In this document: one piece after another, positions 7,799 to 56,400 of the stretch | Numbering within the stretch: position 1 is the stretch's first letter | Layout of the letters: each line of letters opens with the position of its first letter | Assembly (NCBI RefSeq): GCF_022846255.1 | Contig: NZ_AP025682.1 | Origin: Escherichia coli | Lineage (GTDB): Bacteria > Pseudomonadota > Gammaproteobacteria > Enterobacterales > Enterobacteriaceae | DNA: 64,000 nt | Direction: 5' to 3' (one strand) | The notes under the pieces: generated by a model | What the model saw: the letters and a program-made list of their open reading frames with translations, nothing else | The model's database searches: none | What the model was told of the DNA's origin: nothing | Translations under genes and position numbers: made by a program

Positions 7799-10700
7799 TT
7801 AGTCATTTTGCTGACAGAAAACAGTAATCTCCTGGTCCAGCTCTGCAATGTGTTCTTTTACAGAGTTCAGCAACTGAAGAATTTCAGGCTTACTGTCATC
7901 TGAAACAGGTGTTATTTCTAACTGGTGGCTAATATTAATCAACTTTTGCAAATTCAGGATGTTAGCCGCACCGTGGATGCGATGAATACACTGATGGAAA
8001 GTTCTGTTATCGCCAGCTTCTAGTGCATGAAACGCAGCGGGTAGATCTTTATGCGTTTCATGCTGGAAAGTCATGAGAATCTCCTGCATCAGTTGTAGAT
8101 CATTCGCCGTATTATTCTTCAGGGCCTCGATATCAAGGTGGCGATACTGAGGTGCAATATGCGCAACCTGGTGTAACTGACTTAAATGTGTTTTCAGTAC
8201 ATCCAGAGTCAACGGTTTGAACAAACATAAGTTCATGCCGCAATTTAACCCTTTTTCACGTTCGTTAGCCTGTGCGTTGGCTGTAAGCCCCCAGATGGGT
8301 AAGGAAGAATTTTGCTCACGGAGTTTGCGAGTCAACTCAAAACCATCCATATTCGGCATATTAACGTCAGTAATAAGCAGATCATAATGTTGCATACTGA
8401 CTTTGTGTAGCGCTTGCACACCATCAGTGGCTTCATCAACATCATATCCTAATAGATTTAGCTGGCGTTTGAGTAATAGCCTGTTGGTCGGATGATCATC
8501 CGCGATTAATATGCTCAACTTTTCAGGGAGTGTTATAGGTTGTTCTGCTTTTGCCTCGACAGCCGCCACTTGTTGGGTAATTTCTACCGGGATTGTGATC
8601 GTAAATATCGTTCCTATGCCTGGATGACTTTCTAATGACAAATCGCCCTGCATGTTTTTAATTAATTCTTTGCAGATCATTAAGCCTAAACCAGAACCTG
8701 TTTGCTGACGACCTGCACTTGTTTGGCTATAGCGTTTAAACAGTTGTTGTTGTTCTTCCTGAGATAATCCACTTCCAGAATCCATAATCGTCATTTTGAT
8801 AACAGCGTGGTTGTCATCAATGTGACCCAGGGAGGTCGTAATTTTTACTGCCCCCTCGGTAGTAAATTTGAGAGCATTACTCAGTAAATTAGATAAGACC
8901 TGCTTAAACGCCTGAGGGTCGATCTTAACCAGGTAGCGTTCAGGAAGCGTACTGCTGCAACTTAATGCGATCGATTTGCTTGCAGCAATCGCAGCGAAAG
9001 AGTGACAAGTGTTCTGGACTAAAGTAGGGATATCGACCCATTGTGGTTGAAGTTGATAGTTACCCGATTCAATTTTGTCGACATCAAGGATTTCACCAAT
9101 TAAGCCGAGGAGTGATTGTCCGGTGGCGTAGGCAAGTGAAATCGCCTCCACCCGTTGTTCCTTGCTAAGACCAGAACCCGACAGTAGTTCCAGGAAGCCC
9201 ATAATGGAGCTTATTGGTGTTCTTATTTCGTGACTCATTGTTGCCAGAAACTGGCTTTTTGCGACAGTTGCATTGATCGCTTTATTTCTCTCTACTTCGA
9301 GTGCATGAATTAAATCACGCGTCTCGGTAATATCTTGCCAACCACAAATATAAACAGCATGTTCGCTTGCTGGCAGATTACATAAGGTATGCCAGTGATT
9401 AATGCATCTTTTCTCGATGCCATTATCAATTTCAAATACCTGTGTGTATATTGTTCGGTTTTCTTTCGTTTCTGCTGTGACTTCATGCGTATTAGAAAAA
9501 ACATCTTTAAAGGGGGATTCACTGTTTTCTAATGGTAACATTGCATTTTTATAGTAATCAGCAGTGAAATAATGTTCAAATGCACTATTGTGACTAATGA
9601 CATTACCTTGCCAGTTTACAACATAAGTTGGATTCGGTAAGGAATCCGAGAGCGCTTTCCGGAATGATATTTGGTTTTCTAAATCACCCTGAATAACTTT
9701 ACGACGACGAACTGAGCGTAACAGGTAGAATCCCCATAAAAGGCTACTGCCAACTAATAAAACGGATAATGTCGTAACAATATAAAATTGCTCGCTATAG
9801 AGGTCCCATGTGTCAATGGTCACATTGGGCATTTTAATCCATTTTTCGGTCAGGCGCAGAACTTCGCTTGGGGGAATTGCATTCAGTGCTTTATTAATAA
9901 TATCCTTAAGTTCCGGTTCTCCGCGAGGAAAAGCGAACGAAAGTGATGCATTCTGAACGCCGGGAATAAGAAAATGATAAAGTTCATTAGGATAGTAATG
10001 GTCGATCATGTAACGCGAATTTAACTGTGTCGCGACCAGAGCATCAAGTTCACCTTCCTTGACCTTGTGAAATGCAGCGCTGGCGTTATCGACTTTTATC
10101 CACTCTACCTCCGGATACATCTCTTTTAATTGCGAATGAAGCTCATAATAATATGGAATGGCAACTTTCATTCCTTTTTTTAATGTTTGTTCACTGTCAG
10201 GCGCTTTTTGCATGACAAAAACGTAAGGCGTTGTTATGAAGACTTCAGCAAATGAAACATTATTTTCTCGATCTTCACTATAAATAGCGGCGGGCAATAT
10301 ATCCCATCCACCGGGGTTAAGCTGTGTCCCAGCATGAATATTATGTGAAACGGTGATCGGAGAAAAATTTAAACCTGTTTGCAAGGTAATAATATTAAGA
10401 ATATCACCCATCACGCCCCGAACTGAGCCAGTTTCATCTGTCATAGAATAGGGTGGCGAGTAAGGATTTTCCAGCACCTTTAAATCGGGATGCTGCTTAA
10501 TCCACTGTTTTTCATGTTCAGTGAGTTCTAATGGTTTGTTCAGAAAGGCCAGGTTTCCTGTATCAAGCCAATTTTGTGATACTTCATAGCGAACTTCATT
10601 TGTTAAAGCATCAACAAATCGATTGAGTACTTCATTAAGAACGATTGAATCTTTTCTGGTTAATAAAAAGTTAAATTGACGCGGTGAGTTATAATACTTC

Positions 10701-30626: not shown

Positions 30627-31670
30627 TTACAGGTCAGCGTTTGTTTTTTGTTGTTGGGTAGCGGTTTTTATGGGGGTTCCCAGGTTTTTAGTAAACCACT
30701 CAACAACTCTGTTTATAATAATTGGCTGATACCATGTATTATCTCCATGCTCAGCCCCTTCTACCAGAACGTACTCAGCGTTATCGCCGTTCTTCTTCAA
30801 CATCCTGAATAGTTTGGCGCTTTGCTCAGGTGAAACCAGAGTGTCTTTGCTACCATGCATAATAAGAAATGGGGGGTTTACTCCTTTCATATGTCCGATT
30901 GGACTGGCGTTTAGCGCTTTTTCTTTTGACGCTGTTATGGGGGCTCCCGCAAAACTTCTGAATGCAGGGCCATTGATCATTAAGGCTTCGGTTACGGCAG
31001 GAGATCGATGAACCTCCTGCACAGATTCAGGGAACCCCTCGCCAATATTCAACAAGTCAGAAATCCCATAAAGTGTGGCAACTGCCTGAACATCTGCTGA
31101 TTGCTGAAGAAAGTCACCTTTATCAAAGGTTTTGTCACCATTTGTAGTTCCCATCATCTGGGCAAGCCATCCACCGGCAGAGTCACCCAGAACTCCGATT
31201 CTTTGAGGATCAATCCCATAATCGCTGGCATGTTCTCTCAAGTAACGTATTGCAGCTTTCCCATCCTCAACTGGTGCTGGAAATGTATCAGGAATTGTTC
31301 TGTATTCTACAGCGGCCACAACAAAACCAGCTTCAGCCAGAGCCATTCTCATTTCAATAAATTTGTCATGTTCAGAAGACATGAATCCGCCGCCGGGATA
31401 ATAAATAATGGCTGGTTTTAAATCATTTGTTCGTGGGACAAGAACTGACATGTGAAGCTGTCTGACAGAACGAGTTCCTTTTATCTGGGAATAAACAACA
31501 TCACCAATGAGATCGACCTGGTTTCTGGTCGGTGAAACACTAATGATATCTGCACCCGGGGTGTAACCAGGAAGATTAGTCTGGACAGGTGTTGCACAAC
31601 TCCCGACCGACATGGCCATTGACATACCATACAATAGTGTTGCAGATGATAATATCTTGTTAATTTTCAT
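30627..31670 (-). CDS. secreted esterase/lipase lipoprotein, HSL-type alpha/beta hydrolase
   Basis: 347 aa; signal peptide with lipobox SVGSC; oxyanion motif YYPGGGF; nucleophile elbow GDSAGG; C-terminal HGSKD and AEHGDN. Confidence 0.75.
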   Translation of the reverse strand: MKINKILSSATLLYGMSMAMSVGSCATPVQTNLPGYTPGADIISVSPTRNQVDLIGDVVYSQIKGTRSVRQLHMSVLVPRTNDLKPAIIYYPGGGFMSSEHDKFIEMRMALAEAGFVVAAVEYRTIPDTFPAPVEDGKAAIRYLREHASDYGIDPQRIGVLGDSAGGWLAQMMGTTNGDKTFDKGDFLQQSADVQAVATLYGISDLLNIGEGFPESVQEVHRSPAVTEALMINGPAFRSFAGAPITASKEKALNASPIGHMKGVNPPFLIMHGSKDTLVSPEQSAKLFRMLKKNGDNAEYVLVEGAEHGDNTWYQPIIINRVVEWFTKNLGTPIKTATQQQKTNADL

Positions 31671-34076: not shown

Positions 34077-35174
34077 TTAGAACTGGTAAACCAGTCCTAC
34101 GGCAACGATGTCGTCAGTGCTTACACCAAGTGCTTTAGTGAAGTCGTTTTTGTCAAGCAGGTTGATCTTGTAATCAACGAAAGTAGACATGTTTTTGTTG
34201 AAGTAATAAGTTGCACCTACATCAACATATTTGACTAAGTCCTGATCGCCCCATACTCCAAGATCCTTACCTTTAGATTGCAGGTAAGCAACGGACGGAC
34301 GCAGACCGAAATCGAACTGATATTGTGCAACAGCTTCGAAGTTTTGAGCTTTATTAGCAACGAAGTGATCAGCAAATACAGTCATATTCTGGGTTTCAGA
34401 ATAGGTAGTGGCCAGGTAAATGTTGTTAGCGTCATATTTCAGACCTGCGGCCCAAATTTCTGCATTTTTACCGGAAGCAAATACTTCAGGAAGAACTTTG
34501 CCTGCATTGACTTGAGTGTCGGTACGATCAGATTTCGCATAAGTCGCACCAATGCCGAATCCTTCGTATTCATAGGTAGCAGAGAAACCGAATCCATCAC
34601 CGTTACCTTCGGTGTAGTTATCGAAATCGCTACGATCGTTTTTACCTTGGTACTGAGCAGCAAAGTTCAGACCATCAACCAGACCAAAGAAGTCGTTGTT
34701 ACGGTAAGTTGCAACACCAGTTGCACGTTGAGTCATGAACACGTCGGTTTGAGTCCAAGTGTCACCACCGAATTCTGGCAGGACGTCAGTCCACGCACCG
34801 ATGTCGTATGCTACACCGTAGTTACGACCGTAATCGATGGAACCGTAGTCACCGAATTTCAGGCCTGCAAATGCAAGACGGGTTTTGTCTTTGGCGGAAC
34901 CTTGAGATTCAGCGCGGTTGCCTTTGAATTCATATTCCCACTGACCGAAACCAGTCAGTTGATCGTTGATTTGGGTTTCACCTTTGAAGCCCAGACGAAC
35001 ATAAGTAGTATCACCATCATCTGCATCGTTAGAGGAAAAGTAGTGCTTGGCATTAACTTTCCCGTACAGATCCAGCTTGTTACTGTCTTTATTATAAATT
35101 TCAGCTGCCTGAGCAGACATCGCCATCAGTACTGATGCAGCTACAGCAGAAATTGCCACTGTTAATTTTTTCAT
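34077..35174 (-). CDS. nmpC: outer-membrane general porin (NmpC/OmpC family), apparently intact
   Basis: 365 aa from [11 protein letters not shown]; signal peptide; C-terminal F; long AT-rich upstream region 35175-35716. Confidence 0.9.
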
Positions 35175-35761
35175 CGTGAGCCCTTTTTTTGAACTATTAT
35201 TAAAAAATGATGTCACTGCGCGATAAATATTCATCTAATCAATATGATTATTTCAAGATGTAAGTTTTAGTTTCTCATTTAATTTGTGAAGTAGATCTCT
35301 ATTTTTATCTGAACTTTTTCTATCGAAACCTATTTATGGCTCTTATTTGAACAAAAATAAACCTATTAGCTAATTTATATTAATGGCTGTTATTTATGGT
35401 GGTTCTATAATTCGGAAGTTTAATTTAAATCAACTAAAAATAACGTCGGAAATTATTTATTGGTTATTTGTTGAGGTTTTCTAATGTATTTGTGGTGGTG
35501 TTTTGAACACTCGGTAGCATTCTCATAAATATCATTCAGTGGTTTACGTACGTAAAAAATTGGTTATGCTGTTAAGAGTGGTTACTTCGTCACACAGCTT
35601 AAACCCGCCGTCGAGCTGGTTTTTCCATTTTTTGAGTCTCGATATTAGCTGATAACTCAATACCTGAGTTATTCACTGACTCCGAGTCTGTTACGTTTCT
35701 GCTTTTTTGCGATACGTTGTATTCCCTCAATTTACACCCGCTTTGTCTGCGAGGTGGGGTT

Positions 35762-37914: not shown

Positions 37915-37963
37915 ACCTGATCTTCTGTCTTACGGGTCCTTTCCGGCGATCCGGCAGGCTACG

Positions 37964-37975
37964 GGGCGGAAGGCG
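37964..37975. other. cosN cohesive-end site (variant 12-mer GGGCGGAAGGCG)
   Basis: flanks ACG...CGCGGGTTTTCGCTATTTATGAAAATTTTCCGG match lambda cos as recalled; lambda 12-mer is GGGCGGCGACCT. Confidence 0.5.
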
Positions 37976-38152
37976 CGCGGGTTTTCGCTATTTATGAAAA
38001 TTTTCCGGTTTAAGGCGTTTCCGTTCTTCTTTGCCGTAACTTAATGTTTTTATTTAAAACACCCCCTGAAAAGAAAGGAAACGACAGGTGCTGAAAACGG
38101 GCTTTTTGGCCTCTGTCGTTTCCTTTCTCTGTTTTTGTCCGTGGAATGAACA

Positions 38153-38671
38153 ATGGAAGTCAACAAAAAGCAGCTGGCTGACATTTTCGGTGCGAGTATC
38201 CGTACCATTCAGAACTGGCAGGAACAGGGAATGCCCGTTCTGCGAGGCGGTGGCAAGGGTAATGAGGTGCTTTATGACTCTGCCGCCGTCATAAAATGGT
38301 ATGCCGAAAGGGATGCTGAAATTGAGAACGAAAAGCTGCGCCGGGAGGTTGAAGAACTGCGGCAGGCCAGCGAGACAGATCTCCAGCCAGGACTATTGAG
38401 TACGAACGCCATCGACTTACGCGTGCGCAGGCCGACGCACAGGAGCTGAAAAATGCCAGAGACTCCGCTGAAGTGGTGGAAACTGCATTCTGTACTTTCG
38501 TGCTGTCGCGGATCGCAGGTGAAATTGCCAGTATTCTCGACGGGATCCCCCTGTCGGTGCAGCGGCGTTTTCCGGAACTGGAAAACCGACATGTTGATTT
38601 CCTGAAACGGGATATCATCAAAGCCATGAACAAAGCAGCCGCGCTGGATGAACTGATACCGGGGTTGCTGA

Positions 38672-38697
<26 letters not shown>
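38153..38697 (+). pseudogene. Nu1: terminase small subunit Nu1 with a 1-nt frameshift
   Basis: ORFs 38153-38449 and 38473-38697 together match lambda Nu1; total 545 nt versus 546 expected; missing A near 38391. Confidence 0.75.
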
Positions 38698-42378
<3,681 letters not shown>

Positions 42379-42398
<20 letters not shown>

Positions 42399-43698
42399 TC
42401 TCCCGCATATTGCCAGCATGGCCTTTAATGAGCCGCTGATGCTTGAACCCGCCTATGCGCGGGTTTTCTTTTGTGCGCTTGCAGGCCAGCTTGGGATCAG
42501 CCGCCTGACGGATGCGGTGTCCGGCGACAGCCTGACTGCCCAGGAGGCACTCGCGACGCTGGCATTATCCGGTGATGATGGCGGGCCACGACAGGCCCGC
42601 AGTTATCAGGTCATGAACGGCATCGCCGTGCTGCCGGTGTCCGGCACGCTGGTCAGCCGGACGCGGGCGCTGCAGCCGTATTCGGGGATGACCGGTTACA
42701 ACGGCATTATCGCCCGTCTGCAACAGGCTGCCAGCGATCCGATGGTGGACGGCATTCTGCTCGATATGGACACACCGGGCGGGATGGTGGCGGGAGCATT
42801 TGACTGTGCTGACATCATCGCCCGTGTGCGAGACATAAAACCGGTATGGACGCTGGCCAACGACATGAACTGCAGTGCAGGTCAGCTGCTTGCCAGCGCC
42901 GCCTCCCGGCGTCTGGTCACGCAGACCGCCCGGACAGGCTCCATCGGCGTCATGATGGCTCACAGTAATTACGGTGCTGCGCTGGAGAAACAGGGTGTGG
43001 AAATCACGCTGATTTACAGCGGCAGCCATAAGGTGGATGGCAACCCCTACAGCCATCTACCGGATGATGTCCGGGAAACACTGTAGTCCCGGATGGATGC
43101 AACCCGCCGGATGTTTGCACAGAAGGTGTCGGCATATACCGGCCTGTCCGTGCAGGCTGTGCTGGATACCGAGGCTGCAGTGTACAGCGGTCAGGAGGCT
43201 ATTGATGCCGGACTGGCTGATGAACTTGTTAACAGTACCGATGCGATCACCGTCATGCGTGATGCACTGGATACACGTAAATCCCGTCTCTCAGGAGGGC
43301 GAATGACCAAAGAGACTCAATCAACAACTGTTTCAGCCACTGCTTCGCAGGCTGACGTTACTGGCGTGGTGCAAGCGACGGAGGGCGAGAACGCCAGCGC
43401 GGCGCAGCCGGACGTGAACGCGCAGATCACCGCAGCGGTTGCGGCAGAAAACAGCCGCATTATGGGTATCCTCAATTGTGAGGAGGCCCACGGACGTGAA
43501 GAACAGGCACGCGTGTTGGCAGAAACCCCCGGAATGACCGTGGAAACGGCCCGCCGCATTCTGGCCGCAGCACCACAGAGTGCACAGGCGCGCAGTGACA
43601 CTGCGCTGGATCGTCTGATGCAGGGGGCACCGGCACCGCTGGCTGCAGGTAACCCGGCATCTGATGCCGTTAACGATTTGCTGAACACACCAGTGTAA
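42379..43698 (+). pseudogene. C: head protease/scaffold gene C interrupted by an in-frame TAG at 43084-43086
   Basis: GTG start inside B; 440 codons in one frame equal lambda gpC length, but codon 236 is TAG; S49 peptidase domain lies upstream of the stop. Confidence 0.7.
43093..43698 (+). CDS. Nu3: scaffolding protein Nu3
   Basis: 201 aa, same frame as the C 3' part; starts MDATRRMFAQ. Confidence 0.9.
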   Translation: MDATRRMFAQKVSAYTGLSVQAVLDTEAAVYSGQEAIDAGLADELVNSTDAITVMRDALDTRKSRLSGGRMTKETQSTTVSATASQADVTGVVQATEGENASAAQPDVNAQITAAVAAENSRIMGILNCEEAHGREEQARVLAETPGMTVETARRILAAAPQSAQARSDTALDRLMQGAPAPLAAGNPASDAVNDLLNTPV

Positions 43699-43707
43699 GG
43701 GATGTTT

Positions 43708-44040
43708 ATGACGAGCAAAGAAACCTTTACCCATTACCAGCCGCTGGGCAACAGTGACCCGGCTCATACCGCAACCGCGCCCGGCGGATTGAGTGCGAAA
43801 GCGCCTGCAATGACCCCGCTGATGCTGGACACCTCCACCCGTAAGCTGGTTGCGTGGGATGGCACCACCGACGGTGCTGCCGTTGGCATTCTGGCGGTTG
43901 ATGCTGACCAGACCAGCACCACGCTGACGTTCTACAAGTCCGGCACGTTCCGTTATGAGGATGTGCTCTGGCCGGAGGCTGCCAGCGATGAGACGAAAAA
44001 ACGGACCGCGTTTGCCGGAACGGCAATCAGCATCGTTTAA
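43708..44040 (+). CDS. D: head decoration protein D
   Basis: 110 aa from [12 protein letters not shown], lambda gpD-like. Confidence 0.95.
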
Positions 44041-44061
44041 CCTTACCCTTCATCACTAAAG

Positions 44062-44082
44062 GCCGCCTGTGCGGCTTTTTTT
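44062..44082 (+). terminator. hairpin plus T-run between D and E
   Basis: GCCGCCTGTGCGGC followed by TTTTTTT. Confidence 0.5.
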
Positions 44083-44095
44083 ACGGGATTTTTTT

Positions 44096-45121
44096 ATGTC
44101 GATGTACACAACCGCCCAGCTGCTGGCGGCAAATGAGCAGAAATTTAAGTTTGATCCGCTGTTTCTGCGCCTCTTTTTCCGTGAGAGCTATCCCTTCACC
44201 ACGGAGAAAGTCTATCTCTCACAAATTCCGGGACTGGTAAACATGGCGCTGTACGTTTCGCCGATTGTTTCCGGTGAGGTTATCCGCTCCCGTGGCGGCT
44301 CCACCTCTGAATTTACGCCGGGATATGTCAAGCCGAAGCATGAAGTGAATCCGCAGATGACCCTGCGTCGCCTGCCGGATGAAGATCCGCAGAATCTGGC
44401 GGATCCGGCTTACCGTCGCCGTCGCATCATCATGCAGAACATGCGTGACGAAGAGCTGGCCATTGCCCAGGTCGAAGAGATGCAGGCAGTTTCTGCCGTG
44501 CTTAAGGGCAAATACACCATGACCGGTGAAGCCTTCGATCCGGTTGAGGTGGATATGGGCCGCAGTGCGGCGAATAACATCACGCAGTCCGGCGGCACGG
44601 AGTGGAGCAAGCGTGACAAGTCCACGTATGACCCGACCGACGATATCGAAGCCTACGCGCTGAACGCCAGCGGTGTGGTGAATATCATCGTGTTCGATCC
44701 GAAAGGCTGGGCGCTGTTCCGTTCCTTCAAAGCCGTCAGGGAGAAGCTGGATACCCGTCGCGGCTCTCATTCCGAGCTGGAGACAGCGGTAAAAGACCTG
44801 GGCAAAGCGGTGTCCTATAAGGGAATGTATGGCGATGTGGCCATCGTCGTGTATTCCGGACAGTACGTGGAAAACGGCGTCAAAAAGAACTTCCTGCCGG
44901 ACAACACGATGGTGCTGGGGAACACTCAGGCTCGCGGTCTGCGCACCTATGGCTGTATTCAGGATGCGGATGCATTGAGTGAGGGTATTAATGCGTCTCC
45001 TCGTTATCCGAAAAACTGGAAGACATCCGGCGATCCGGCGCGTGAGTTCACCATGATTCAGTCAGCACCGCTAATGCTGCTGGCTGATCCTGATGAGTTC
45101 GTGTCCGTACAACTGGCGTAA
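44096..45121 (+). CDS. E: major capsid protein E
   Basis: 341 aa from MSMYTTAQLLAANEQ, lambda gpE-like. Confidence 0.97.
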   Translation: MSMYTTAQLLAANEQKFKFDPLFLRLFFRESYPFTTEKVYLSQIPGLVNMALYVSPIVSGEVIRSRGGSTSEFTPGYVKPKHEVNPQMTLRRLPDEDPQNLADPAYRRRRIIMQNMRDEELAIAQVEEMQAVSAVLKGKYTMTGEAFDPVEVDMGRSAANNITQSGGTEWSKRDKSTYDPTDDIEAYALNASGVVNIIVFDPKGWALFRSFKAVREKLDTRRGSHSELETAVKDLGKAVSYKGMYGDVAIVVYSGQYVENGVKKNFLPDNTMVLGNTQARGLRTYGCIQDADALSEGINASPRYPKNWKTSGDPAREFTMIQSAPLMLLADPDEFVSVQLA

Positions 45122-45158
45122 TCATGGCCCTTCGGGGCCATTTCTCTCTGTGGAGGAG

Positions 45159-45557
45159 TCCATGACGAAAGATGAACTGATTGCCCGTCTCCGCTCGCTG
45201 GGTGAACAACTGAACCGTGATGTCAGCCTGACGGGGACGAAAGAAGAACTGGTGCTCCGTGTGGCAGAGCTGGAAGAGGAGCTTGATGACACGGATGACG
45301 CTGCCGGTCAGGACACATCTGTCAGCCCGGAAAATGCGCTGACCGGACATGAAAATGAGGTGGTATCAGCGCAGCCGGATACCGTGACTGATACGGCTGA
45401 TCTGGTCACGGTTGTGGCACTGGTGACGCTGCATACTGATGCACTTCACGCCACGCGGGATGAACCTGTGGCATTTGTGCTGCCGGGAACGGCGTTTCGT
45501 GTCTCTGCCGGTGTGGCAGCCGAAATGACAGAGCGCGGCCTGGCCAGAATGCAATAA
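45159..45557 (+). CDS. FI: DNA packaging protein FI
   Basis: 132 aa from MTKDELIARLRSLGEQ. Confidence 0.9.
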   Translation, partial: SMTKDELIARLRSLGEQLNRDVSLTGTKEELVLRVAELEEELDDTDDAAGQDTSVSPENALTGHENEVVSAQPDTVTDTADLVTVVALVTLHTDALHATRDEPVAFVLPGTAFRVSAGVAAEMTERGLARMQ

Positions 45558-45568
45558 CGGGAGGCGCT

Positions 45569-45922
45569 GTGGCTGATTTCGATAACCTGTTCGATGCTGC
45601 CATTGCCCGCGCCGATGAAACGATACGCGGGTACATGGGAACGTCAGCCACCATGACATCCGGTGAGCAGTCCGGTGCTGTGATACGTGGTGTTTTTGAT
45701 GACCCTGAAAATATCAGCTATGCCGGACAGGGCGTGCGCGTTGAAGGCTCCAGCCCGTCCCTGTTTGTCCGGACTGATGATGTGCGGCAGCTGCGGCGCG
45801 GCGACACGCTGACCATCGGTGAGGAAAACTTCTGGATAGACCGGATTTCGCCGGATGATGGCGGAAGCTGTCATCTCTGGCTTGGGCGGGGCGTACCGCC
45901 TGCCGTTAACCGTCGCCGCTGA
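45569..45922 (+). CDS. FII: head completion protein FII
   Basis: 117 aa, lambda gpFII-like. Confidence 0.9.
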   Translation: MADFDNLFDAAIARADETIRGYMGTSATMTSGEQSGAVIRGVFDDPENISYAGQGVRVEGSSPSLFVRTDDVRQLRRGDTLTIGEENFWIDRISPDDGGSCHLWLGRGVPPAVNRRR

Positions 45923-45933
45923 AAGGGGGATGT

Positions 45934-46512
45934 ATGGCCATAAAAGGTCTTGAGCAGGCCGTTGAAAACCTCAGCCGTATCAGCAGAACGGCGGTGCCCG
46001 GTGCCGCCGCAATGGCCATTAACCGCGTTGCTTCATCCGCGATATCGCAGTCGGCGTCACAGGTTGCCCGTGAGACAAAGGTACGCCGGAAACTGGTAAA
46101 GGAAAGGGCCAGGCTGAAAAGGGCCACGGTCAAAAATCCGCAGGCCAGAATCAGGGTTAACCGGGGGGATTTGCCCGTAATAAAGCTGGGTAACGCGCGG
46201 ATTGTCCTGTCCCGACGCAGGCGTCGTAAAAAGGGGCAGCGTTCATCCCTGAAAGGTGGCGGCAGCGTGCTTGTGGTGGGTAACCGTCGTATTCCCGGCG
46301 CGTTTATTCAGCAACTGAAAAATGGCCGGTGGCATGTCATGCAGCGTGTGGCCGGGAAAAACCGTTACCCCATTGATGTAGTGAAAATCCCGATGGCGGT
46401 GCCGCTGACCACGGCGTTTAAACAAAATATTGAGCGGATACGGCGTGAACGTCTTCCGAAAGAGCTGGGCTATGCGCTGCAGCATCAACTGAGGATGGTA
46501 ATAAAGCGATGA
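45934..46512 (+). CDS. Z: tail completion protein Z
   Basis: 192 aa, lambda gpZ-like. Confidence 0.9.
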   Translation: MAIKGLEQAVENLSRISRTAVPGAAAMAINRVASSAISQSASQVARETKVRRKLVKERARLKRATVKNPQARIRVNRGDLPVIKLGNARIVLSRRRRRKKGQRSSLKGGGSVLVVGNRRIPGAFIQQLKNGRWHVMQRVAGKNRYPIDVVKIPMAVPLTTAFKQNIERIRRERLPKELGYALQHQLRMVIKR

Positions 46513-46904
46513 AACATACTGAACTCCGTGCAGCCGTACTGGATGCACTGGAGAAGCATGACACCGGGGCGACGTTTTTTGATGGTCGCCCCGCTGTTTT
46601 TGATGAGGCGGATTTTCCGGCAGTTGCCGTTTATCTCACCGGCGCTGAATACACGGGCGAAGAGCTGGACAGCGATACCTGGCAGGCGGAGCTGCATATC
46701 GAAGTTTTCCTGCCTGCTCAGGTGCCGGATTCAGAGCTGGATTCGTGGATGGAGTCCCGGATTTACCCGGTGATGAGCGATATCCCGGCACTGTCAGATT
46801 TGATCACCAGTATGGTGGCCAGCGGCTATGACTACCGGCGCGACGATGATGCGGGCCTGTGGAGTTCAGCCGATCTGACTTATGTCATTACCTATGAAAT
46901 GTGA
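46509..46904 (+). CDS. U: tail terminator protein U
   Basis: 131 aa, lambda gpU-like. Confidence 0.9.
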
Positions 46905-46911
46905 GGACGCT

Positions 46912-47652
46912 ATGCCTGTACCAAATCCTACAATGCCGGTGAAAGGTGCCGGGACCACCCTGTGGGTTTATAAGGGGAGCGGTGACCCTTATGCGAACCC
47001 GCTTTCAGACGTTGACTGGTCGCGTCTGGCAAAAGTTAAAGACCTGACGCCCGGCGAACTGACCGCTGAGTCCTATGACGACAGCTATCTCGATGATGAA
47101 GATGCAGACTGGACTGCGACCGGGCAGGGGCAGAAATCTGCCGGAGATACCAGCTTCACGCTGGCGTGGATGCCCGGAGAGCAGGGGCAGCAGGCGCTGC
47201 TGGCGTGGTTTAATGAAGGTGATATCCGTGCCTATAAAATCCGCTTCCCGAACGGCACGGTCGATGTGTTCCGTGGCTGGGTCAGCAGTATCGGTAAGGC
47301 GGTGACGGCGAAGGAAGTGATTACCCGCACGGTGAAGGTCACCAATGTGGGACGTCCGTCGATGGCAGAAGATCGCAGCACGGTGACGGCGACAACCGGC
47401 ATGACGGTGACACCCGCCAGTGCTTCCGTAGTGAAAGGGCAGAGCACCACGCTGACCGTGGCATTCCAGCCGGAGGGCGCAACCGACAAGAGCTTCCGTG
47501 CGGTGTCTGCGGATAAAACAAAAGCCACCGTGTCGGTCAGTGGTATGACCATCACCGTGAAAGGTGTTGCTGCAGGCAAGGTCAACATTCCGGTCGTATC
47601 CGGTAATGGTGAACTTGCTGCGGTTGCAGAAATCAACGTCACCGCCAGTTAA
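46912..47652 (+). CDS. V: major tail tube protein V
   Basis: 246 aa from [16 protein letters not shown] with C-terminal Ig-like domain. Confidence 0.95.
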
Positions 47653-47667
47653 TCCGGAGAGTCAGCG

Positions 47668-48090
47668 ATGTTCCTGAAAACCGAATCATTTGAACATAAC
47701 GGTGTGACCGTCACGCTTTCTGAACTGTCAGCCCTGCAGCGTATTGAGCATCTCGCCCTGATGAAACGGCAGGCAGAACAGGCGGAGTCAGACAGCAACC
47801 GGAAGTTTACTGTGGAAGACGCCATCAGAACCGGCGCGTTTCTGGTGGCGATGTCCCTGTGGCATAACCATCCGAAGAAGACAAAGCTGCCTTCCATGAA
47901 TGAAGCCGTTAAACAGATTGAGCGGGAAGTGCTTACCACCTGGCCCACAGAGGCAATTTCTCATGCTGAAAACGTGGTGTACCGGCTGTCCGGTATGTAT
48001 GAGTTTGTGGTGAATGATGCTCCTGAACAGGCAGAGGACGCCGGGCCTGCAGAGCCTGTTTCTGCGGGAAAGTGTTCGACGGTGAGCTGA
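47668..48090 (+). CDS. G: tail assembly chaperone G
   Basis: 140 aa, lambda gpG-like. Confidence 0.9.
   Translation: MFLKTESFEHNGVTVTLSELSALQRIEHLALMKRQAEQAESDSNRKFTVEDAIRTGAFLVAMSLWHNHPKKTKLPSMNEAVKQIEREVLTTWPTEAISHAENVVYRLSGMYEFVVNDAPEQAEDAGPAEPVSAGKCSTVS
48066..48072 (+). promoter_or_regulatory. programmed -1 ribosomal frameshift slippery site GGGAAAG (G to GT fusion)
   Basis: heptamer near the 3' end of G; the downstream T frame has no ATG start. Confidence 0.7.
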
Positions 48091-48506
48091 GTTTTGCCCT
48101 GAAACTGGCGCGCGAGATGGGGCGACCCGACTGGCGTGCCATGCTTGCCGGGATGTCATCCACGGAGTATGCCGACTGGCACCGCTTTTACAGTACCCAT
48201 TATTTTCATGATGTTCTGCTGGATATGCACTTTTCCGGGCTGACGTACACCGTACTCAGCCTGTTTTTCAGCGATCCGGATATGCATCCGCTGGATTTCA
48301 GTCTGCTGAACCGGCGCGAGGCTGACGAAGAGCCTGAAGATGATGTGCTGATGCAGAAAGCGGCAGGGCTTGCCGGAGGTGTCCGCTTTGGCCCGGACGG
48401 GAATGAAGTTATCCCCGCTTCCCCGGATGTGGCGGACATGACGGAGGATGACGTAATGCTGATGACAGTATCAGAAGGGATCGCAGGAGGAGTCCGGTAT
48501 GGCTGA
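48072..48506 (+). CDS. T: tail assembly protein T (made only as G-T frameshift fusion)
   Basis: 144-codon frame continuing from the slippery site. Confidence 0.8.
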   Translation: MFDGELSFALKLAREMGRPDWRAMLAGMSSTEYADWHRFYSTHYFHDVLLDMHFSGLTYTVLSLFFSDPDMHPLDFSLLNRREADEEPEDDVLMQKAAGLAGGVRFGPDGNEVIPASPDVADMTEDDVMLMTVSEGIAGGVRYG

Positions 48507-51060
48507 ACCGGTAGGCGATCTGGTCGTTGATTTGAGTCTGGATGCGGCCAGATTTGACGAGCAGATGGCCAGAGTCAGGCGTCATTTTTCCGGTACGGAA
48601 AGTGATGCGAAAAAAACAGCGGCAGTCGTTGAACAGTCGCTGAGCCGACAGGCACTGGCTGCACAGAAAGCGGGGATTTCCGTCGGGCAGTATAAAGCTG
48701 CCATGCGTATGCTGCCTGCGCAGTTCACCGACGTGGCCACGCAGCTTGCAGGCGGGCAAAGTCCGTGGCTGATCCTGCTGCAACAGGGGGGGCAGGTGAA
48801 GGACTCCTTCGGCGGGATGATCCCCATGTTCAGGGGGCTTGCCGGTGCGATCACCCTGCCGATGGTCGGGGCCACCTCGCTGGCGGTGGCGACCGGTGCG
48901 CTGGCGTATGCCTGGTATCAGGGCAACTCAACCCTGTCCGATTTCAACAAAACGCTGGTCCTTTCCGGCAATCAGTCGGGTCTGACGGCAGATCGCATGC
49001 TGGTCCTGTCCAGAGCCGGGCAGGCGGCAGGGCTGACGTTTAACCAGACCAGCGAGTCACTCAGCGCACTGGTTAAGGCGGGAGTAAGCGGTGAGGCTCA
49101 GATTGCATCCATCAGCCAGAGTGTGGCGCGTTTCTCCTCTGCATCCGGCGTGGAGGTGGACAAGGTCGCTGAAGCCTTCGGGAAGCTGACCACAGACCCG
49201 ACGTCAGGGCTGACAGCGATGGCACGCCAGTTCCATAACGTGACGACGGAGCAGATTGCGTATGTTGCTCAGTTGCAGCGTTCCGGCGATGAAGCCGGGG
49301 CATTGCAGGCGGCGAACGAGGCCGCGACGAAAGGGTTTGATGACCAGACCCGCCGCCTGAAAGAGAACATGGGTACGCTGGAGACCTGGGCAGACAGGAC
49401 AGCGCGGGCATTCAAATCCATGTGGGATGCGGTGCTGGATATTGGTCGTCCTGATACCGCGCAGGAGATGCTGATTAAGGCAGAGGCTGCGTTTAAGAAA
49501 GCGGACGACATCTGGAGTCTGCGCAAGGATGATTATTTTGTTAACGATGAAGCGCGGGCGCGTTACTGGGATGATCGTGAAAAGGCCCGTCTTGCGCTTG
49601 AAGCCGCGAGAAAGAAGGCTGAGCAGCAGAGTCAACAGGACAAAAATGCGCAGCAGCAGAGCGATACTGAAGCGTCACGGCTGAAATATACCGAAGAGGC
49701 GCAGAAGGCTTACGAACGGCTGCAGACGCCGCTGGAGAAATATACCGCCCGTCAGGAAGAACTGAACAAGGCACTGAAGGACGGGAAAATTCTGCAGGCA
49801 GATTACAACACGCTGATGGCGGCGGCGAAAAAGGACTATGAAGCGACGCTGAAAAAGCCGAAACAGTCCGGCGTGAAGGTGTCTGCGGGCGATCGTCAGG
49901 AAGACAGTGCTCATGCTGCCCTGCTGACGCTTCAGGCTGAACTCCGGACGCTGGAGAAGCATGCCGGAGCAAATGAGAAAATCAGCCAGCAGCGCCGGGA
50001 TTTGTGGAAGGCGGAGAGTCAGTTCGCGGTACTGGAGGAGGCGGCGCAACGTCGCCAGCTGTCTGTACAGGAGAAATCCCTGCTGGCGCATAAAGATGAG
50101 ACGCTGGAGTACAAACGCCAGCTGGCTGCACTTGGCGACAAGGTTACGTATCAGGAGCGCCTGAACGCGCTGGCGCAGCAGGCGGATAAATTCGCACAGC
50201 AACAACGGGCAAAACGGGCAGCCATTGAGGCGAAAAACCGGGGGCTGACTGACCGGCAGGCAGCGCGGGACGCCACGGAACAGCGCCTGAAGGAACAGTA
50301 TGGCGATAATCCTCTGGCGCTGAATAACGTCATGTCAGAGCAGAAAAAGACCTGGGCGGCTGAAGACCTGCTTCGCGGGAACTGGATGGCAGGCCTCAGG
50401 TCCGGCTGGAGCGAGTGGAAAGAGAGTGCCACGGACAGTATGTCGCAGGTTAAAAGTGCTGCCACGCAGACCTTTGATGGTATTGCGCATAATATGGCGG
50501 CGATGCTGACCGGCAGTGAGCAGAACTGGCGAAGCTTCACCCGTTCCGTGCTGTCCATGATGACAGAAATTCTGCTTAAGCAGGCAATGGTGGGGATTGT
50601 CGGGAGTATCGGCAGCGCCATTGGCGGGGCTGTTGGTGGCGGCGCATCCGCGTCAGGCGGTACAGCCATTCAGGCCGCTGCGGCGAAATTCCATTTTGCA
50701 ACCGGAGGATTTACGGGAACCGGCGGCAAATATGAGCCAGCGGGGATTGTTCACCGTGGTGAGTTTGTCTTCACGAAGGAGGCAACCAGCCGGATTGGTG
50801 TCGGCAACCTGTACCGCCTAATGCGGGGCTATGCGGAAGGTGGTTATGTGGGCGGTGCCGGAAGTCCGGCGCAGATGCGGCGGGCTGAAGGCATTAATTT
50901 TAATCAGAACAATCACGTGGTGATTCAGAACGACGGTACGAATGGTCTGCCAGGTCCACAGATGATGAAGGCAGTGTATGACATGGCCCGCAAGGGTGCC
51001 CGTGATGAAATTCAGACACAGATGCGTGATGGTGGCCTGTTCTCCGGAGGTGGACGATGA
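48499..51060 (+). CDS. H: tail tape-measure protein H
   Basis: 853 aa, lambda gpH-like. Confidence 0.95.
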   Translation: MAEPVGDLVVDLSLDAARFDEQMARVRRHFSGTESDAKKTAAVVEQSLSRQALAAQKAGISVGQYKAAMRMLPAQFTDVATQLAGGQSPWLILLQQGGQVKDSFGGMIPMFRGLAGAITLPMVGATSLAVATGALAYAWYQGNSTLSDFNKTLVLSGNQSGLTADRMLVLSRAGQAAGLTFNQTSESLSALVKAGVSGEAQIASISQSVARFSSASGVEVDKVAEAFGKLTTDPTSGLTAMARQFHNVTTEQIAYVAQLQRSGDEAGALQAANEAATKGFDDQTRRLKENMGTLETWADRTARAFKSMWDAVLDIGRPDTAQEMLIKAEAAFKKADDIWSLRKDDYFVNDEARARYWDDREKARLALEAARKKAEQQSQQDKNAQQQSDTEASRLKYTEEAQKAYERLQTPLEKYTARQEELNKALKDGKILQADYNTLMAAAKKDYEATLKKPKQSGVKVSAGDRQEDSAHAALLTLQAELRTLEKHAGANEKISQQRRDLWKAESQFAVLEEAAQRRQLSVQEKSLLAHKDETLEYKRQLAALGDKVTYQERLNALAQQADKFAQQQRAKRAAIEAKNRGLTDRQAARDATEQRLKEQYGDNPLALNNVMSEQKKTWAAEDLLRGNWMAGLRSGWSEWKESATDSMSQVKSAATQTFDGIAHNMAAMLTGSEQNWRSFTRSVLSMMTEILLKQAMVGIVGSIGSAIGGAVGGGASASGGTAIQAAAAKFHFATGGFTGTGGKYEPAGIVHRGEFVFTKEATSRIGVGNLYRLMRGYAEGGYVGGAGSPAQMRRAEGINFNQNNHVVIQNDGTNGLPGPQMMKAVYDMARKGARDEIQTQMRDGGLFSGGGR

Positions 51061-51386
51061 AAACCTTCCGCTGGAAAGTGAAACCCGGTATGGATGTGGC
51101 TTCGGCCCCTTCTGTAAGAAAGGTGCGCTTTGGTGATGGCTATTCCCAGCGAGCGCCTGCCGGGCTGAATGCCAACCTGAAAACGTACAGCGTGACGCTT
51201 TCTGTCCCCCGTTGGGAGCCCACGGCGCTGGAGTCGTTTCTGGCTGAGCACGGGGGCTGGAAATCCTTTCTGTGGACGCCGCCTTATGAGTGGCGGCAGA
51301 TAAAGGTGACCTGCGCAAAATGGTCGTCGCGGGTCAGTATGCTGCGTGTTGAGTTCAGCGCAGAGTTTGAACAGGTGGTGAACTGA
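51057..51386 (+). CDS. M: tail tip protein M
   Basis: 109 aa, lambda gpM-like. Confidence 0.9.
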   Translation: MKTFRWKVKPGMDVASAPSVRKVRFGDGYSQRAPAGLNANLKTYSVTLSVPRWEPTALESFLAEHGGWKSFLWTPPYEWRQIKVTCAKWSSRVSMLRVEFSAEFEQVVN

Positions 51387-52084
51387 TGCAGGATATCCGG
51401 CAGGAAACATTGAATGAATGCACCCGTGCGGAGCAGTCGGCCAGCGTGGTGCTCTGGGAAATCGATCTGACAGAGGTCGGTGGAGAACGTTATTTTTTCT
51501 GTAATGAGCAGAACGAAAAAGGTGAGCCGGTCACCTGGCAGGGGCGACAGTATCAGCCGTATCCCATTCAGGGGAGTAGTTTTGAACTGAATGGCAAAGG
51601 CACCAGTACGCGCCCCACGCTGACGGTTTCTAACCTGTACGGTATGGTCACCGGGATGGTGGAAGATCTGCAGAGTCTGGTCGGCGGAACGGTGGTCAGG
51701 CGTAAGGTTTACGCCCGTTTTCTGGATGCGGTGAACTTCGTCAACGGAAACAGCGACGCCGATCCGGAGCAGGAGGTGATCAGCCGCTGGCGCATCGAGC
51801 AGTGCAGCGAACTGAGTGCGGTCAGTGCCTCCTTTGTACTGTCCACACCGACGGAAACGGATGGTGCCGTTTTTCCGGGGCGCATCATGCTGGCCAACAC
51901 CTGCACCTGGACCTATCGCGGCGATGAGTGCGGTTATCACGGTCCGGCGGTCGCGGATGAATATGACCAGCCAACGTCCGATATCACGAAGGATAAATGC
52001 AGCAAATGCCTGAGCGGTTGTAAGTTCCGCAATAACGTCGGCAACTTTGGCGGCTTCCTTTCCATTAACAAACTTTCGCAGTAA
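51386..52084 (+). CDS. L: tail tip protein L
   Basis: 232 aa with Cys cluster. Confidence 0.9.
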   Translation: MQDIRQETLNECTRAEQSASVVLWEIDLTEVGGERYFFCNEQNEKGEPVTWQGRQYQPYPIQGSSFELNGKGTSTRPTLTVSNLYGMVTGMVEDLQSLVGGTVVRRKVYARFLDAVNFVNGNSDADPEQEVISRWRIEQCSELSAVSASFVLSTPTETDGAVFPGRIMLANTCTWTYRGDECGYHGPAVADEYDQPTSDITKDKCSKCLSGCKFRNNVGNFGGFLSINKLSQ

Positions 52085-52089
52085 ATCCC

Positions 52090-52833
52090 ATGACACAGGC
52101 AGAATCAGCGATTCTGGCGCACGCCCGGCGATGTGCGCCAGCGGAGTCGTGCGGCTTCGTGGTAAGCACGCCGGAGGGGGAAAGATATTTCCCCTGCGTG
52201 AATATCTCCGGTGAGCCGGAGGCGTATTTCCGTATGTCGCCGGAAGACTGGCTGCAGGCAGAAATGCAGGGTGAGATTGTGGCGCTGGTCCACAGCCACC
52301 CCGGTGGTCTGCCCTGGCTGAGTGAGGCCGACCGGCGGCTGCAGGTGCAGAGTGATTTGCCGTGGTTGCTGGTCTGCCGGGGGGCGATTCATAAGTTCCG
52401 CTGTGTGCCGCATCTCACCGGGCGGCGCTTTGAGCACGGGGTGACGGACTGTTACACGCTGTTCCGGGATGCTTATCATCTGGCGGGGATTGAGATGCCG
52501 GATTTTCATCGTGAGGATGACTGGTGGCGTCACGGTCAGAATCTCTATCTGGATAATCTGGAGGCAACGGGGCTGTATCAGGTGCCGTTGTCAGCGGCGC
52601 AGCCGGGCGATGTGCTGCTGTGCTGTTTTGGTTCATCGGTGCCGAATCATGCCGCTATTTACTGCGGCGACGGCGAGCTGCTGCACCATATTCCTGAACA
52701 ACTGAGCAAACGAGAGAGGTATACCGACAAATGGCAGCGACGCACACACTCCCTCTGGCGTCACCGGGCATGGCGCGCATCTGCCTTTACGGGGATTTAC
52801 AACGATTTGGCCGCCGCATCGACCTTCGTGTGA
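52090..52833 (+). CDS. K: tail tip assembly protein K (JAB/MPN plus NlpC/P60-like)
   Basis: 247-aa ORF with HSHP motif; overlaps I as in lambda. Confidence 0.85.
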   Translation: MTQAESAILAHARRCAPAESCGFVVSTPEGERYFPCVNISGEPEAYFRMSPEDWLQAEMQGEIVALVHSHPGGLPWLSEADRRLQVQSDLPWLLVCRGAIHKFRCVPHLTGRRFEHGVTDCYTLFRDAYHLAGIEMPDFHREDDWWRHGQNLYLDNLEATGLYQVPLSAAQPGDVLLCCFGSSVPNHAAIYCGDGELLHHIPEQLSKRERYTDKWQRRTHSLWRHRAWRASAFTGIYNDLAAASTFV

Positions 52834-53402
52834 AAACGGGGGCTGAAGCCATTCGGGCGCTGGCCACACAGCTCCCGGCGTTTCGTCAGAAACTGAGCGA
52901 CGGCTGGTATCAGGTACGGATTTCCGGGCGGGACGTCAGCACGTCCGGATTGACGGCGCAGTTACATGAGGTTCTGCCTGACGGCGCTGTGATTCATATT
53001 GTTCCCAGAGTCGCCGGGGCCAAGTCAGGGGGCGTATTCCAGATTGTTCTGGGGGCTGCCGCCATTGCCGGATCATTCTTTACTGCCGGAGCCACCCTTG
53101 CAGCATGGGGGGCAGCCATTGGGGCCGGTGGTATGACCGGTATCCTGTTTTCTCTCGGTGCCAGTATGGTACTTGGTGGTGTGGCGCAGATGCTGGCACC
53201 GAAAGCCAGGACGCCCACGGCAGCCAGTACAGATAACGGCAAACAGAACACGTATTTCTCGTCACTGGATAACATGGTTGCCCAGGGCAATGTTCTGCCT
53301 GTTCTGTACGGGGAAATGCGCGTGGGGTCACGCGTGGTTTCTCAGGAGATCAGCACGGCAGACGAAGGGGACGGTGGTCAGGTTGTGGTGATTGGTCGCT
53401 GA
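52731..53402 (+). CDS. I: tail tip assembly protein I
   Basis: 223 aa, lambda gpI-like. Confidence 0.85.
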   Translation: MAATHTLPLASPGMARICLYGDLQRFGRRIDLRVKTGAEAIRALATQLPAFRQKLSDGWYQVRISGRDVSTSGLTAQLHEVLPDGAVIHIVPRVAGAKSGGVFQIVLGAAAIAGSFFTAGATLAAWGAAIGAGGMTGILFSLGASMVLGGVAQMLAPKARTPTAASTDNGKQNTYFSSLDNMVAQGNVLPVLYGEMRVGSRVVSQEISTADEGDGGQVVVIGR

Positions 53403-53462
53403 TGCAAAATGTTTTATGTGAAACCGCCTCCGGGCGGTTTTGTCGTTTATGGAGCATGACGA

Positions 53463-56400
53463 ATGGGTAAAGGCAGCAGTAAGGGGCATACCCCGCGCGA
53501 AGCGAAGGACAACCTGAAATCCACGCAGTTGCTGAGTGTGATTGATGCCATCAGTGAAGGGCCGGTTGAAGGTCCGGTGGATGGATTAAAAAGCGTGCTG
53601 CTGAACAGTACGCCGGTGCTGGACAGTGAGGGGAATACCAACATCTCCGGTGTCACGGTGGTGTTCCGGGCAGGTGAGCAGGAGCAGACACCGCCGGAGG
53701 GATTTGAATCCTCCGGTTCCGAGACGGTGCTGGGTACGGAAGTGAAATACGACACGCCGATCACCCGCACCATCACGTCGGCAAACATCGACCGTCTGCG
53801 CTTTACCTTCGGTGTGCAGGCACTGGTGGAAACCACCTCAAAGGGGGACAGGAATCCATCGGAAGTCCGCCTGCTGGTTCAGATACAACGTAACGGTGGC
53901 TGGGTGACGGAAAAAGACATCACCATTAAGGGCAAAACCACCTCGCAGTATCTGGCCTCGGTGGTGGTGGATAACCTGCCGCCGCGCCCGTTTAATATCC
54001 GGATGCGCAGGATGACGCCGGACAGCACCACAGACCAGCTGCAGAACAAAACGCTCTGGTCGTCATACACCGAAATCATCGATGTGAAACAGTGCTACCC
54101 GAACACGGCACTGGTCGGCGTGCAGGTGGATTCGGAGCAGTTCGGCAGCCAGCAGGTGAGCCGTAATTATCATCTGCGCGGGCGTATTCTGCAGGTGCCG
54201 TCGAACTATAACCCGCAGACGCGGCAATACAGCGGTATCTGGGACGGAACGTTTAAGCCAGCATACAGCAACAACATGGCCTGGTGTCTGTGGGATATGC
54301 TGACCCACCCGCGCTACGGCATGGGGAAACGTCTTGGTGCGGCAGATGTGGATAAATGGGCGCTGTATGTCATCGGCCAGTATTGCGACCAGTCAGTGCC
54401 GGACGGTTTTGGCGGCACGGAGCCGCGCATCACCTGTAATGCGTACCTGACCACACAGCGCAAGGCGTGGGATGTGCTCAGTGATTTCTGCTCGGCGATG
54501 CGCTGTATGCCGGTATGGAACGGGCAGACGCTGACGTTCGTGCAGGACCGACCGTCGGATAAGGTGTGGACCTATAACCGCAGTAATGTGGTGATGCCGG
54601 ATGATGGCGCGCCGTTCCGCTACAGCTTCAGCGCCCTGAAAGACCGCCATAATGCCGTTGAGGTGAACTGGATTGACCCGAACAACGGCTGGGAGACGGC
54701 GACAGAGCTTGTGGAGGACACGCAGGCCATTGCCCGTTACGGTCGTAACGTCACGAAGATGGATGCTTTTGGCTGTACCAGCCGGGGGCAGGCACACCGC
54801 GCCGGGCTGTGGCTGATTAAAACAGAACTGCTGGAAACGCAGACCGTGGACTTCAGCGTGGGCGCAGAAGGGCTTCGCCATGTGCCGGGCGATGTCATTG
54901 AAATCTGTGATGATGACTATGCCGGTATCAGCACCGGCGGGCGCGTGCTGGCGGTAAACAGCCAGACCCGGACGCTGACGCTCGACCGTGAAATCACGCT
55001 GCCATCCTCCGGCACCACGCTGATAAGCCTGGTTGACGGGCAGGGGAGTCCGGTCAGCGTGGAGGTCCAGTCCGTCACCGACGGTGTGAAGGTGAAAGTG
55101 AGCCGGGTTCCTGACGGAATAGCCGAATACAGCGTGTGGGGGCTGAAGCTGCCGACGCTGCGTCAGCGCCTGTTCCGCTGTGTGAGTATCCGTGAGAATG
55201 ATGACGGCACGTATGCCATCACCGCCGTGCAGCATGTACCGGAAAAAGAAGCCATCGTGGATAACGGGGCACACTTTGACGGCGACCGGAGCGGCACGGT
55301 GAATGGTGTCACGCCGCCAGCGGTGCAGCACCTGACCGCCGAAGTCATTGCAGACAGCGGGGAGTATCAGGTACTGGCCCGCTGGGACACGCCGAAGGTG
55401 GTGAAGGGCGTGAGCTTCCTGCTTCGCCTGACCGTGACAGCGGATGACGGCAGTGAGCGGCTGGTCAGCACGGCCCGGACGACGGAAACCACATACCGCT
55501 TCACACAACTGGCACCGGGGAACTACAGGCTGACAGTCCGGGCAGTAAATGCCCGGGGGCAGCAGGGAGACCCGGCGTCTGTATCGTTCCGGATTGCCGC
55601 ACCGGCAGCACCGTCGCGGATTGAGCTGACGCCGGGTTATTTTCAGATAACCGCCACGCCACATCTTGCGGTTTATGACCCGACGGTACAGTTTGAGTTC
55701 TGGTTTTCGGAAAAGCGGATTGCCGATATCCGGCAGGTTGAAACCACAGCGCGCTATCTTGGCACGGCGCTGTACTGGATAGCCGCCAGTATCAATATCA
55801 GGCCGGGCTATGATTATTATTTTTACGTTCGCAGTGTGAACACCGTTGGCAAATCTGCATTCGTGGAGGCTGTCGGTCAGGCGAGCGATGATGCGGAAGG
55901 TTACCTGGATTTTTTCAAAGGCAAGATAACCGAATCCCATCTCGGCAAGGAGCTGCTGGAAAAAGTCGAACTGACGGAGGGTAACGCCAGCAAACTGGAG
56001 GAGTTTTCGAAAGAGTGGAAGGACGCCATTGATAAATGGAATGCCATGTGGGGCGTCAAAATTGAGCAGACCAGAGACGGCAAACATTATGTCACGGGTA
56101 TTGGTCTCAGCATGGAGGACACGGTGAGCCAGTTTCTGGTTGCCGCTAACCGTATCGCGTTTATTGATCCGGCAAACGGGAATGAAACGCCGATGTTTGT
56201 GGCGCAGGGCAATCAGATATTCATGAACGACGTGTTCCTGAAACGCCTGACGGCCCCCACCATTACCAGTGGTGGAAATCCACCGGCATTTTCCCTGACA
56301 CCGGACGGAAAGCTGACTGCTAAAAATGCGGATATCAGTGGCAGTGTGAATGCGAACGCCGGGACGCTCAACAACGTCACGATAAATGAGAACTGTACGA

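Follow-up and report, generated by a model that had tools for sequence, protein, structure and literature searches.

A lambda-type cos site with a probable natural minority cohesive end in a defective Escherichia coli prophage

Background

Lambda-like phages do not all have the same cohesive ends. Feiss et al. (2015, PMC4669245) described differences in bp 7-12, the right half of cosN, as 'common' among these phages and cited N15, phiD326 and Gifsy-1: the cosN of N15 and that of phiD326 depart from lambda at positions 9 and 12, and that of Gifsy-1 at positions 8, 9 and 11. According to the same work, mutations in the right half have a minimal phenotype, C11G having none whereas G2C causes a 10-fold loss of yield, because a terminase anchored at cosB nicks the adjacent strand without much dependence on its sequence (PMC4669245). 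Furthermore, the yield with lambda terminase was the same for cosN-N15 as for cosN-lambda, both cosQ and the CG pairs at the flanks are conserved among lambda-like phages, and mismatched cohesive ends lower the yield of phage (PMC4669245).

Here we analyse a cos site within 64,000 nucleotides of Escherichia coli DNA, a stretch that we call the window when we refer to its whole length. A first-pass annotation of this stretch had noticed that the 12 nucleotides at the nicking site are not those of lambda, and had proposed either a distinct cohesive end or a degenerate site, the latter in agreement with lesions in the Nu1 and C genes of the same prophage.

Results

Layout of the cos site and comparison with lambda

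The lambda-type cos region occupies 37931-38165 of the window and includes, towards its end, the Nu1 start codon (38153). The first-pass annotation had aligned 37930-38150 with the cosQ-cosN-cosB of lambda, and this alignment was borne out. When 37930-38160 was compared by BLASTN with 50,697 phage records, 103 records matched, and the match to the cos of lambda and of DE3 (93.5% over 231 bp, E 4e-94) is far above chance. The ungapped MAFFT alignment with the lambda record PV340536 places the 12-mer of the window directly over the lambda GGGCGGCGACCT, which means that both the lambda cohesive end given in that annotation and its register were right.

The 12-mer of the window is GGGCGGAAGGCG (37964-37975, + strand), with ...TACGGGTCCTTTCCGGCGATCCGGCAGGCTACG upstream and CGCGGGTTTTCGCTATTTATGAAAATTTTCCGGTTTAAGGCGTTTCCG... 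downstream. It differs from lambda at five positions (7 C>A, 8 G>A, 9 A>G, 10 C>G and 12 T>G) and not at six as had been counted before, position 11 being C in both. The left half, GGGCGG, is that of lambda, and all five substitutions fall within bp 7-12, where AAGGCG takes the place of CGACCT; this is the pattern of the natural right-half variants of cosN. With five mismatches, the 12-mer does not belong to the cohesive-end class GGGCGGCGACCT of lambda, 21 and phi80. We found no lambda-type 12-mer with fewer than two mismatches anywhere in the 64-kb window, and the 47 matches with three mismatches or fewer are at chance level (44 expected).

The remaining elements, that is cosQ, GGGCGG, the CG dinucleotides at both predicted nicks, R3, R2 and R1, are unchanged with respect to lambda. 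The cosQ heptamer GGGTCCT (37934-37940, + strand), the packaging-termination signal according to PMC4669245, was invariant in the six phages aligned; it starts 30 bp upstream of the first base of the cohesive end, the same distance as in lambda, and is separated from the 12-mer by a spacer of 23 bp whose last bases are ACG. The cosN core, CGGGGCGGAAGGCGCG (37962-37977, + strand), consists of a 12-bp interval between two CG dinucleotides. From homology with lambda (PMC9026076), the top strand would be nicked at 37963/37964 and the bottom strand at 37975/37976, and a 12-nt 5' cohesive end GGGCGGAAGGCG is predicted at 37964-37975 on the + strand; for every phage with this 12-mer, the nick positions and the overhang are likewise purely homology-based predictions.

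In cosB, the critical gpNu1 binding site R3, AGGCGTTTCCGTTCTT (38013-38028, + strand), corresponds to lambda bp 50-65 (coordinates from PMC9026076) and is identical to it. The other two repeats are also identical to lambda and have putative boundaries. One is an R2-like inverted repeat at 38072-38087 on the - strand, which reads AGAAAGGAAACGACAG on the + strand and was assigned because the CGTTTCC core is common to the repeats and because of the lambda identity in the alignment; the other is an R1-like repeat, CTGTCGTTTCCTTTCT (38113-38128, + strand). Thus the position of cosQ, the GGGCGG between CG flanks and the R repeats followed by Nu1 and A are those of a lambda-like cos.

Four of the eight pairs of the 16-bp core are twofold-symmetric, versus five of eight in lambda, and the pairs kept in the window include the flanks and G2:C11. 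With a GC content of 10/12 in each allele and nearest-neighbour Tm values of 46.1 C for the window and 47.7 C for lambda, the predicted duplex stability is about the same.

Terminase genes and state of the prophage

The window starts with the E. coli chromosomal genes yfdX, frc and lpxP (99.9% identity). The lesions in Nu1 and C that the first-pass annotation had reported are present. The gene for the small terminase subunit, Nu1 (38153-38697, + strand; Pfam Phage_Nu1, E 2e-49), is a pseudogene: a 1-bp deletion in the G run at 38390-38391 stops the product at 98 aa versus 181. This run is GG in the window, GGG in 105 related sequences and GGA in 7, and its context reads CCAGGACTA in the window, CCAGGGACTA in 84 relatives and CCAGGAACTA in 7, including lambda. 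The deletion lies in a homopolymer and may be a sequencing error.

Gene A for the large terminase subunit (38672-40597, + strand; Pfam GpA_ATPase and GpA_nuclease) is intact, and its 641-aa product is 100% identical to gpA proteins at loci with either cosN allele. Gene C, the head protease/scaffold gene (42379-43698), has an amber mutation, CAG>TAG, at 43084-43086 (codon 236 of 439) and no indel with respect to PhiR46_1, a phage described below. The amber codon is two codons before the internal start of Nu3 (ATG 43093), so that the 201-aa Nu3 ORF is intact and the S49 peptidase domain is left without its C-terminal part.

Since Nu1 is frameshifted and the head gene C carries an amber codon, the cos of this prophage is probably unusable in cis. 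In trans, a helper phage with the packaging specificity of lambda could still cut and package it.

Two other genes of the prophage were also observed. In the late region, upstream of the lysis genes, there is a 385-aa Gram-negative porin (34077-35234, - strand; Pfam Porin_1, E 2.5e-156), presumably akin to the nmpC/lc-type porins that lambdoid prophages carry as cargo. On the opposite (-) strand, the prophage region has a 347-aa alpha/beta-hydrolase ORF (30627-31670; Pfam BD-FAE, E 1.5e-44) that may be a moron or cargo gene.

The same cohesive end in other elements

The 12-mer GGGCGGAAGGCG is found, with identical flanks, in two deposited phage genomes, PhiR46_1 (PV340565) and YDC107_1 (CP025712); actually, the 57 bp formed by cosQ, the spacer, cosN and the first 15 bp beyond are the same in the window and in both phages. 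PhiR46_1 is 96.2% identical to 37930-55960 of the window, an 18-kb head and tail module. Its genome is complete and annotated, with full-length Nu1, A, W, B, C/Nu3, D and E as well as tail genes, and its telL/telR, ParA/ParB and large primase make it an N15-like telomere/linear-plasmid prophage. YDC107_1 is called N15-like on the basis of its Ravinvirus taxonomy only.

Relative to PhiR46_1, the window lacks 1 bp between E and FI (45141) and, in frame, 3 bp within FI (45390); there are no further indels from cos to 46200.

The first-pass annotation had named the same 12-mer in viable lambdoid phages as a refuting observation, and the present findings largely supply it against the reading of decay. 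The 12-mer is present in PhiR46_1; the viability and plaque formation of this phage are presumed from its GenBank record (propagation host ECOR13) and from its membership in the PhiR series. The source paper of the PhiR panel is reportedly that of Brenes and Laub in 2025 (Cell Host Microbe). In the accessible part of PMC13190303, PhiR-series phages are a temperate-phage panel for plaque assays, and PhiR46.1 itself is not named there.

A scan of IMG/VR for GGGCGGAAGGCG gave 82 stretches, around 74 of them in cos context; this and the other IMG/VR counts come from targeted scans or from the matches listed and are not unbiased frequencies. The cosB beside the variant was of the lambda type (R3) in around 52 of these cos loci, 21-like in 17 and of a third type, GAGCATTTTAAGGGGACTGG, which may come from a phage or from a cos-bearing satellite (PICI), in 4. 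Several different cosQ-cosN spacers also accompany the 12-mer. One 12-mer thus occurs with at least three cosB types, and therefore cosN alleles and the determinants of packaging specificity reassort. As an example of the downstream sequence at the variant loci we give ...TTTCCGGGGAAAATCATGTCG.

Regarding the terminase genes at these loci, Nu1 has 181 aa in 40 of the 41 variant loci with a lambda-type Nu1 start, the window being the sole exception, and gpA has 641 aa in all 24 loci with enough sequence (23 from IMG/VR and the window). The gpA proteins beside the variant are 98.9-100% identical to the closest gpA beside a lambda-type cosN, so one enzyme evidently acts on both alleles. Intact terminase genes thus accompany the 12-mer in independent elements, PhiR46_1 included, as would be expected of a functional allele.

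Two possible associations of the allele were rejected. Covariation between TerL and cosN was discarded, as gpA is up to 100% identical across both alleles, and so was a link to spacer base -5 (GGCTACG versus GGTTACG), because the variant was found with both.

Of 5,426 complete E. coli genomes, 154 have the variant, at 164 places in total; 16 of these places are on plasmids, which would be compatible with linear plasmids of the N15 kind. The lambda-type cosN was found in 4,283 of the same genomes, at 8,148 places; the variant therefore represents around 2% of the sites. The 41-bp stretch around it is 100% identical in independent E. coli assemblies. The closest E. coli relative of the prophage (98.2%), in strain VCSW7 (NZ_CP082357), has the same 12-mer, and its nohD/Nu1, A and C are intact, as is B. 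In VCSW7 (12097-13740) the major capsid gene is shortened, with an integrase behind it, so this copy is defective in another way. Among the GTDB one-per-species representatives, the variant with a lambda-like right flank matched only Escherichia sp. E1V33, and from these searches the AAGGCG allele looks essentially confined to Escherichia.

Spectrum of right-half alleles

A scan of IMG/VR in which bp 7-12 were left free, and which required 31 exact flanking bases, gave at least 120 stretches, with 108 CGACCT, 13 AAGGCG, one CAGGCG and one CTGACG among the matches listed. The 13 AAGGCG include two loci of the phage database, those of PhiR46_1 and YDC107_1. The bimodal distribution of 108 versus 13 may reflect the requirement for exact flanks, or selection.

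Two looser scans specified only cosQ, the spacing, CG-GGGCGG and the distal CG, 17 bases in total, so that their singletons may include chance matches in a very large collection; alleles were counted only when the additional downstream context CGCTATnTATG was present. In this strict lambda-like context we found at least 14 right-half alleles. Among them were CGTCCG of the N15 type, CGTCCT, CGACCG and CAGACT, together with three that are intermediate between lambda and the window, namely CAGGCT, CAGGCG and AAGGCT. AAGGCG was often recovered in the strict context and is there among the alleles most divergent from lambda; the scans recovered other alleles with five or six differences from lambda too. 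In other downstream contexts, GGGCGGGCGGCG and GGGCGGCAGCGT are abundant. The latter, which is of the Gifsy-1 type, was recovered 23 times in the IMG/VR scans, with a downstream context mostly different from that of the window.

Discussion

Taking these results together, the cos site of the window is very probably structurally complete and of lambda specificity, with a natural minority cohesive-end allele. Of the two proposals of the first-pass annotation, the distinct cohesive end is thus the one that gains support, since many independent phages and prophages whose terminase genes are intact share the 12-mer. The changes are confined to that part of cosN in which, according to published genetics, mutations are tolerated (PMC4669245). 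Full cleavage efficiency of the AAGGCG allele would be an extrapolation from those experiments, because five of the six right-half positions are changed, more than in any allele tested experimentally (N15: two).

The way in which such a site would work can be proposed from lambda (PMC4669245, PMC9026076). Dimers of gpNu1 would bind R3, R2 and R1 in cosB while IHF bends the stretch that separates R3 from R2, and the cosB-bound gpNu1 would anchor gpA over cosN. Then gpA would nick the two strands 12 bp apart, beside the conserved CG dinucleotides, and the separation of the strands would leave the 5' overhangs GGGCGGAAGGCG and its complement CGCCTTCCGCCC. The bottom-strand nick, which is near cosB, would be placed by the Nu1-R3 anchor and not by base-specific reading, so that bp 7-12 could drift and many right-half alleles could coexist. 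Cyclisation would be unaffected, since both ends of one genome come from the same cos and stay self-complementary.

It could be argued that AAGGCG is a selected functional class, for example a cohesive-end incompatibility group, or a match to a specialised terminase, and not a result of neutral drift. We consider this quite improbable. A specialised TerL is not what we see, because gpA beside one allele can be 100% identical to gpA beside the other. The scan with the hexamer left free is strongly bimodal among the matches listed (108 CGACCT, 13 AAGGCG and two singletons), although its 31 exact flanking bases favour close relatives and inflate the bimodality, and intermediate alleles exist. The allele does persist across several cosB types and spacers, and mismatched cohesive ends do lower phage yield (PMC4669245); however, a single cos yields ends that always match, and terminase acts without cosN specificity for right-half changes (PMC4669245). 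It is also improbable that AAGGCG and its NNGGCG relatives make up a selectively maintained second 'sticky-end type' among the lambda-like phages of E. coli. If they did, this second type would lower productive end-joining or heteroconcatemer packaging with lambda-type genomes or cos-bearing satellites, and a cohesive-end incompatibility group would contradict the published view of bp 7-12 as simply unconstrained.

The other proposal of the first-pass annotation, a degenerate site in agreement with the Nu1 and C lesions, found no support. According to it, cosN would have decayed and lost its function, and the substitutions would be the erosion of a defective prophage with a frameshift in Nu1 and an amber codon in C. 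The prophage is certainly defective (Nu1 of 98 aa, CAG>TAG at 43084-43086), and five changes in 6 bp are dense for a region around 94% identical to lambda. Nevertheless, decay would not repeat the same five changes while sparing cosQ, GGGCGG, both CG dinucleotides and all R sites, whereas GGGCGGAAGGCG stands beside a full-length Nu1 in 40 IMG/VR loci and beside a full-length gpA in 23 (24 with the window), in a deposited phage with a complete structural module, in VCSW7, whose Nu1, A and C are intact, and in 154 genomes of E. coli. Only the window has the lesions, whereas intact elements share the allele, and therefore the lesions are unrelated to the cosN sequence; decay of the site is highly improbable. 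Finally, the probability of a sequencing or assembly artefact, or of a misregistered alignment, is practically negligible: the Nu1 lesion is in a homopolymer, a typical error site, so the assembly may contain errors, but five substitutions are atypical of sequencing error, the alignment has no gaps and its flanks are exact on either side, and the same 41-bp stretch is 100% identical in independent assemblies.

We thus regard the AAGGCG cohesive end as an ordinary natural variant and not as a sign of decay. Its general biological weight is small, because the right-half variability of lambda-like cosN is already published and this allele is a further, more divergent example, with five of six right-half positions different from lambda versus two or three in the natural alleles cited in the literature (N15/phiD326 and Gifsy-1). 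A search of full-text papers for the 12-mer and its reverse complement matched only irrelevant plant and Streptomyces primer sequences; we found no paper naming the allele in the searchable literature, and the sequence itself sits in public genomes. The presence of GGGCGGAAGGCG should not lead annotators to call a cos site dead, and such ends will fail to anneal to the usual lambda cos ends or to cos-ligation oligonucleotides. The divergence of the allele also makes it a convenient natural test of whether cosB-anchored gpA nicks the bottom strand without reading its sequence.

Regarding the known systems, the closest is lambda. The cosQ heptamer and its spacing, the left half of cosN, the CG flanks and R3, R2 and R1 are all the same, and the window has an Nu1 N-terminal DNA-binding region and a gpA of the lambda type. 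The lambda cos differs at bp 7, 8, 9, 10 and 12 of the cohesive end and in having five symmetric pairs and not four.

The cosN of N15 and phiD326, GGGCGGCGTCCG, which we confirmed as the N15 cohesive end, is a right-half variant like that of the window, keeps GGGCGG and the CG flanks and shares the G at position 12. However, N15 has only two differences from lambda (9 and 12) and a simple cosB with a single R3, whereas the window has five differences and the complex lambda cosB. The Gifsy-1-type cosN is also a natural right-half variant, although the positions substituted (8, 9 and 11) are others than in the window.

PhiR46_1 and YDC107_1 share the cos of the window and are linear-plasmid prophages, whereas the element in the window is a prophage integrated into the chromosome of E. 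coli; moreover, the Nu1 and C genes of PhiR46_1 are intact, unlike those of the window. The 96.2% identity between the window and PhiR46_1 is evidence of an exchange of the packaging, head and tail module between integrated lambdoid and N15-like linear-plasmid prophages, and suggests that one packaging module moves between these two kinds of prophage.
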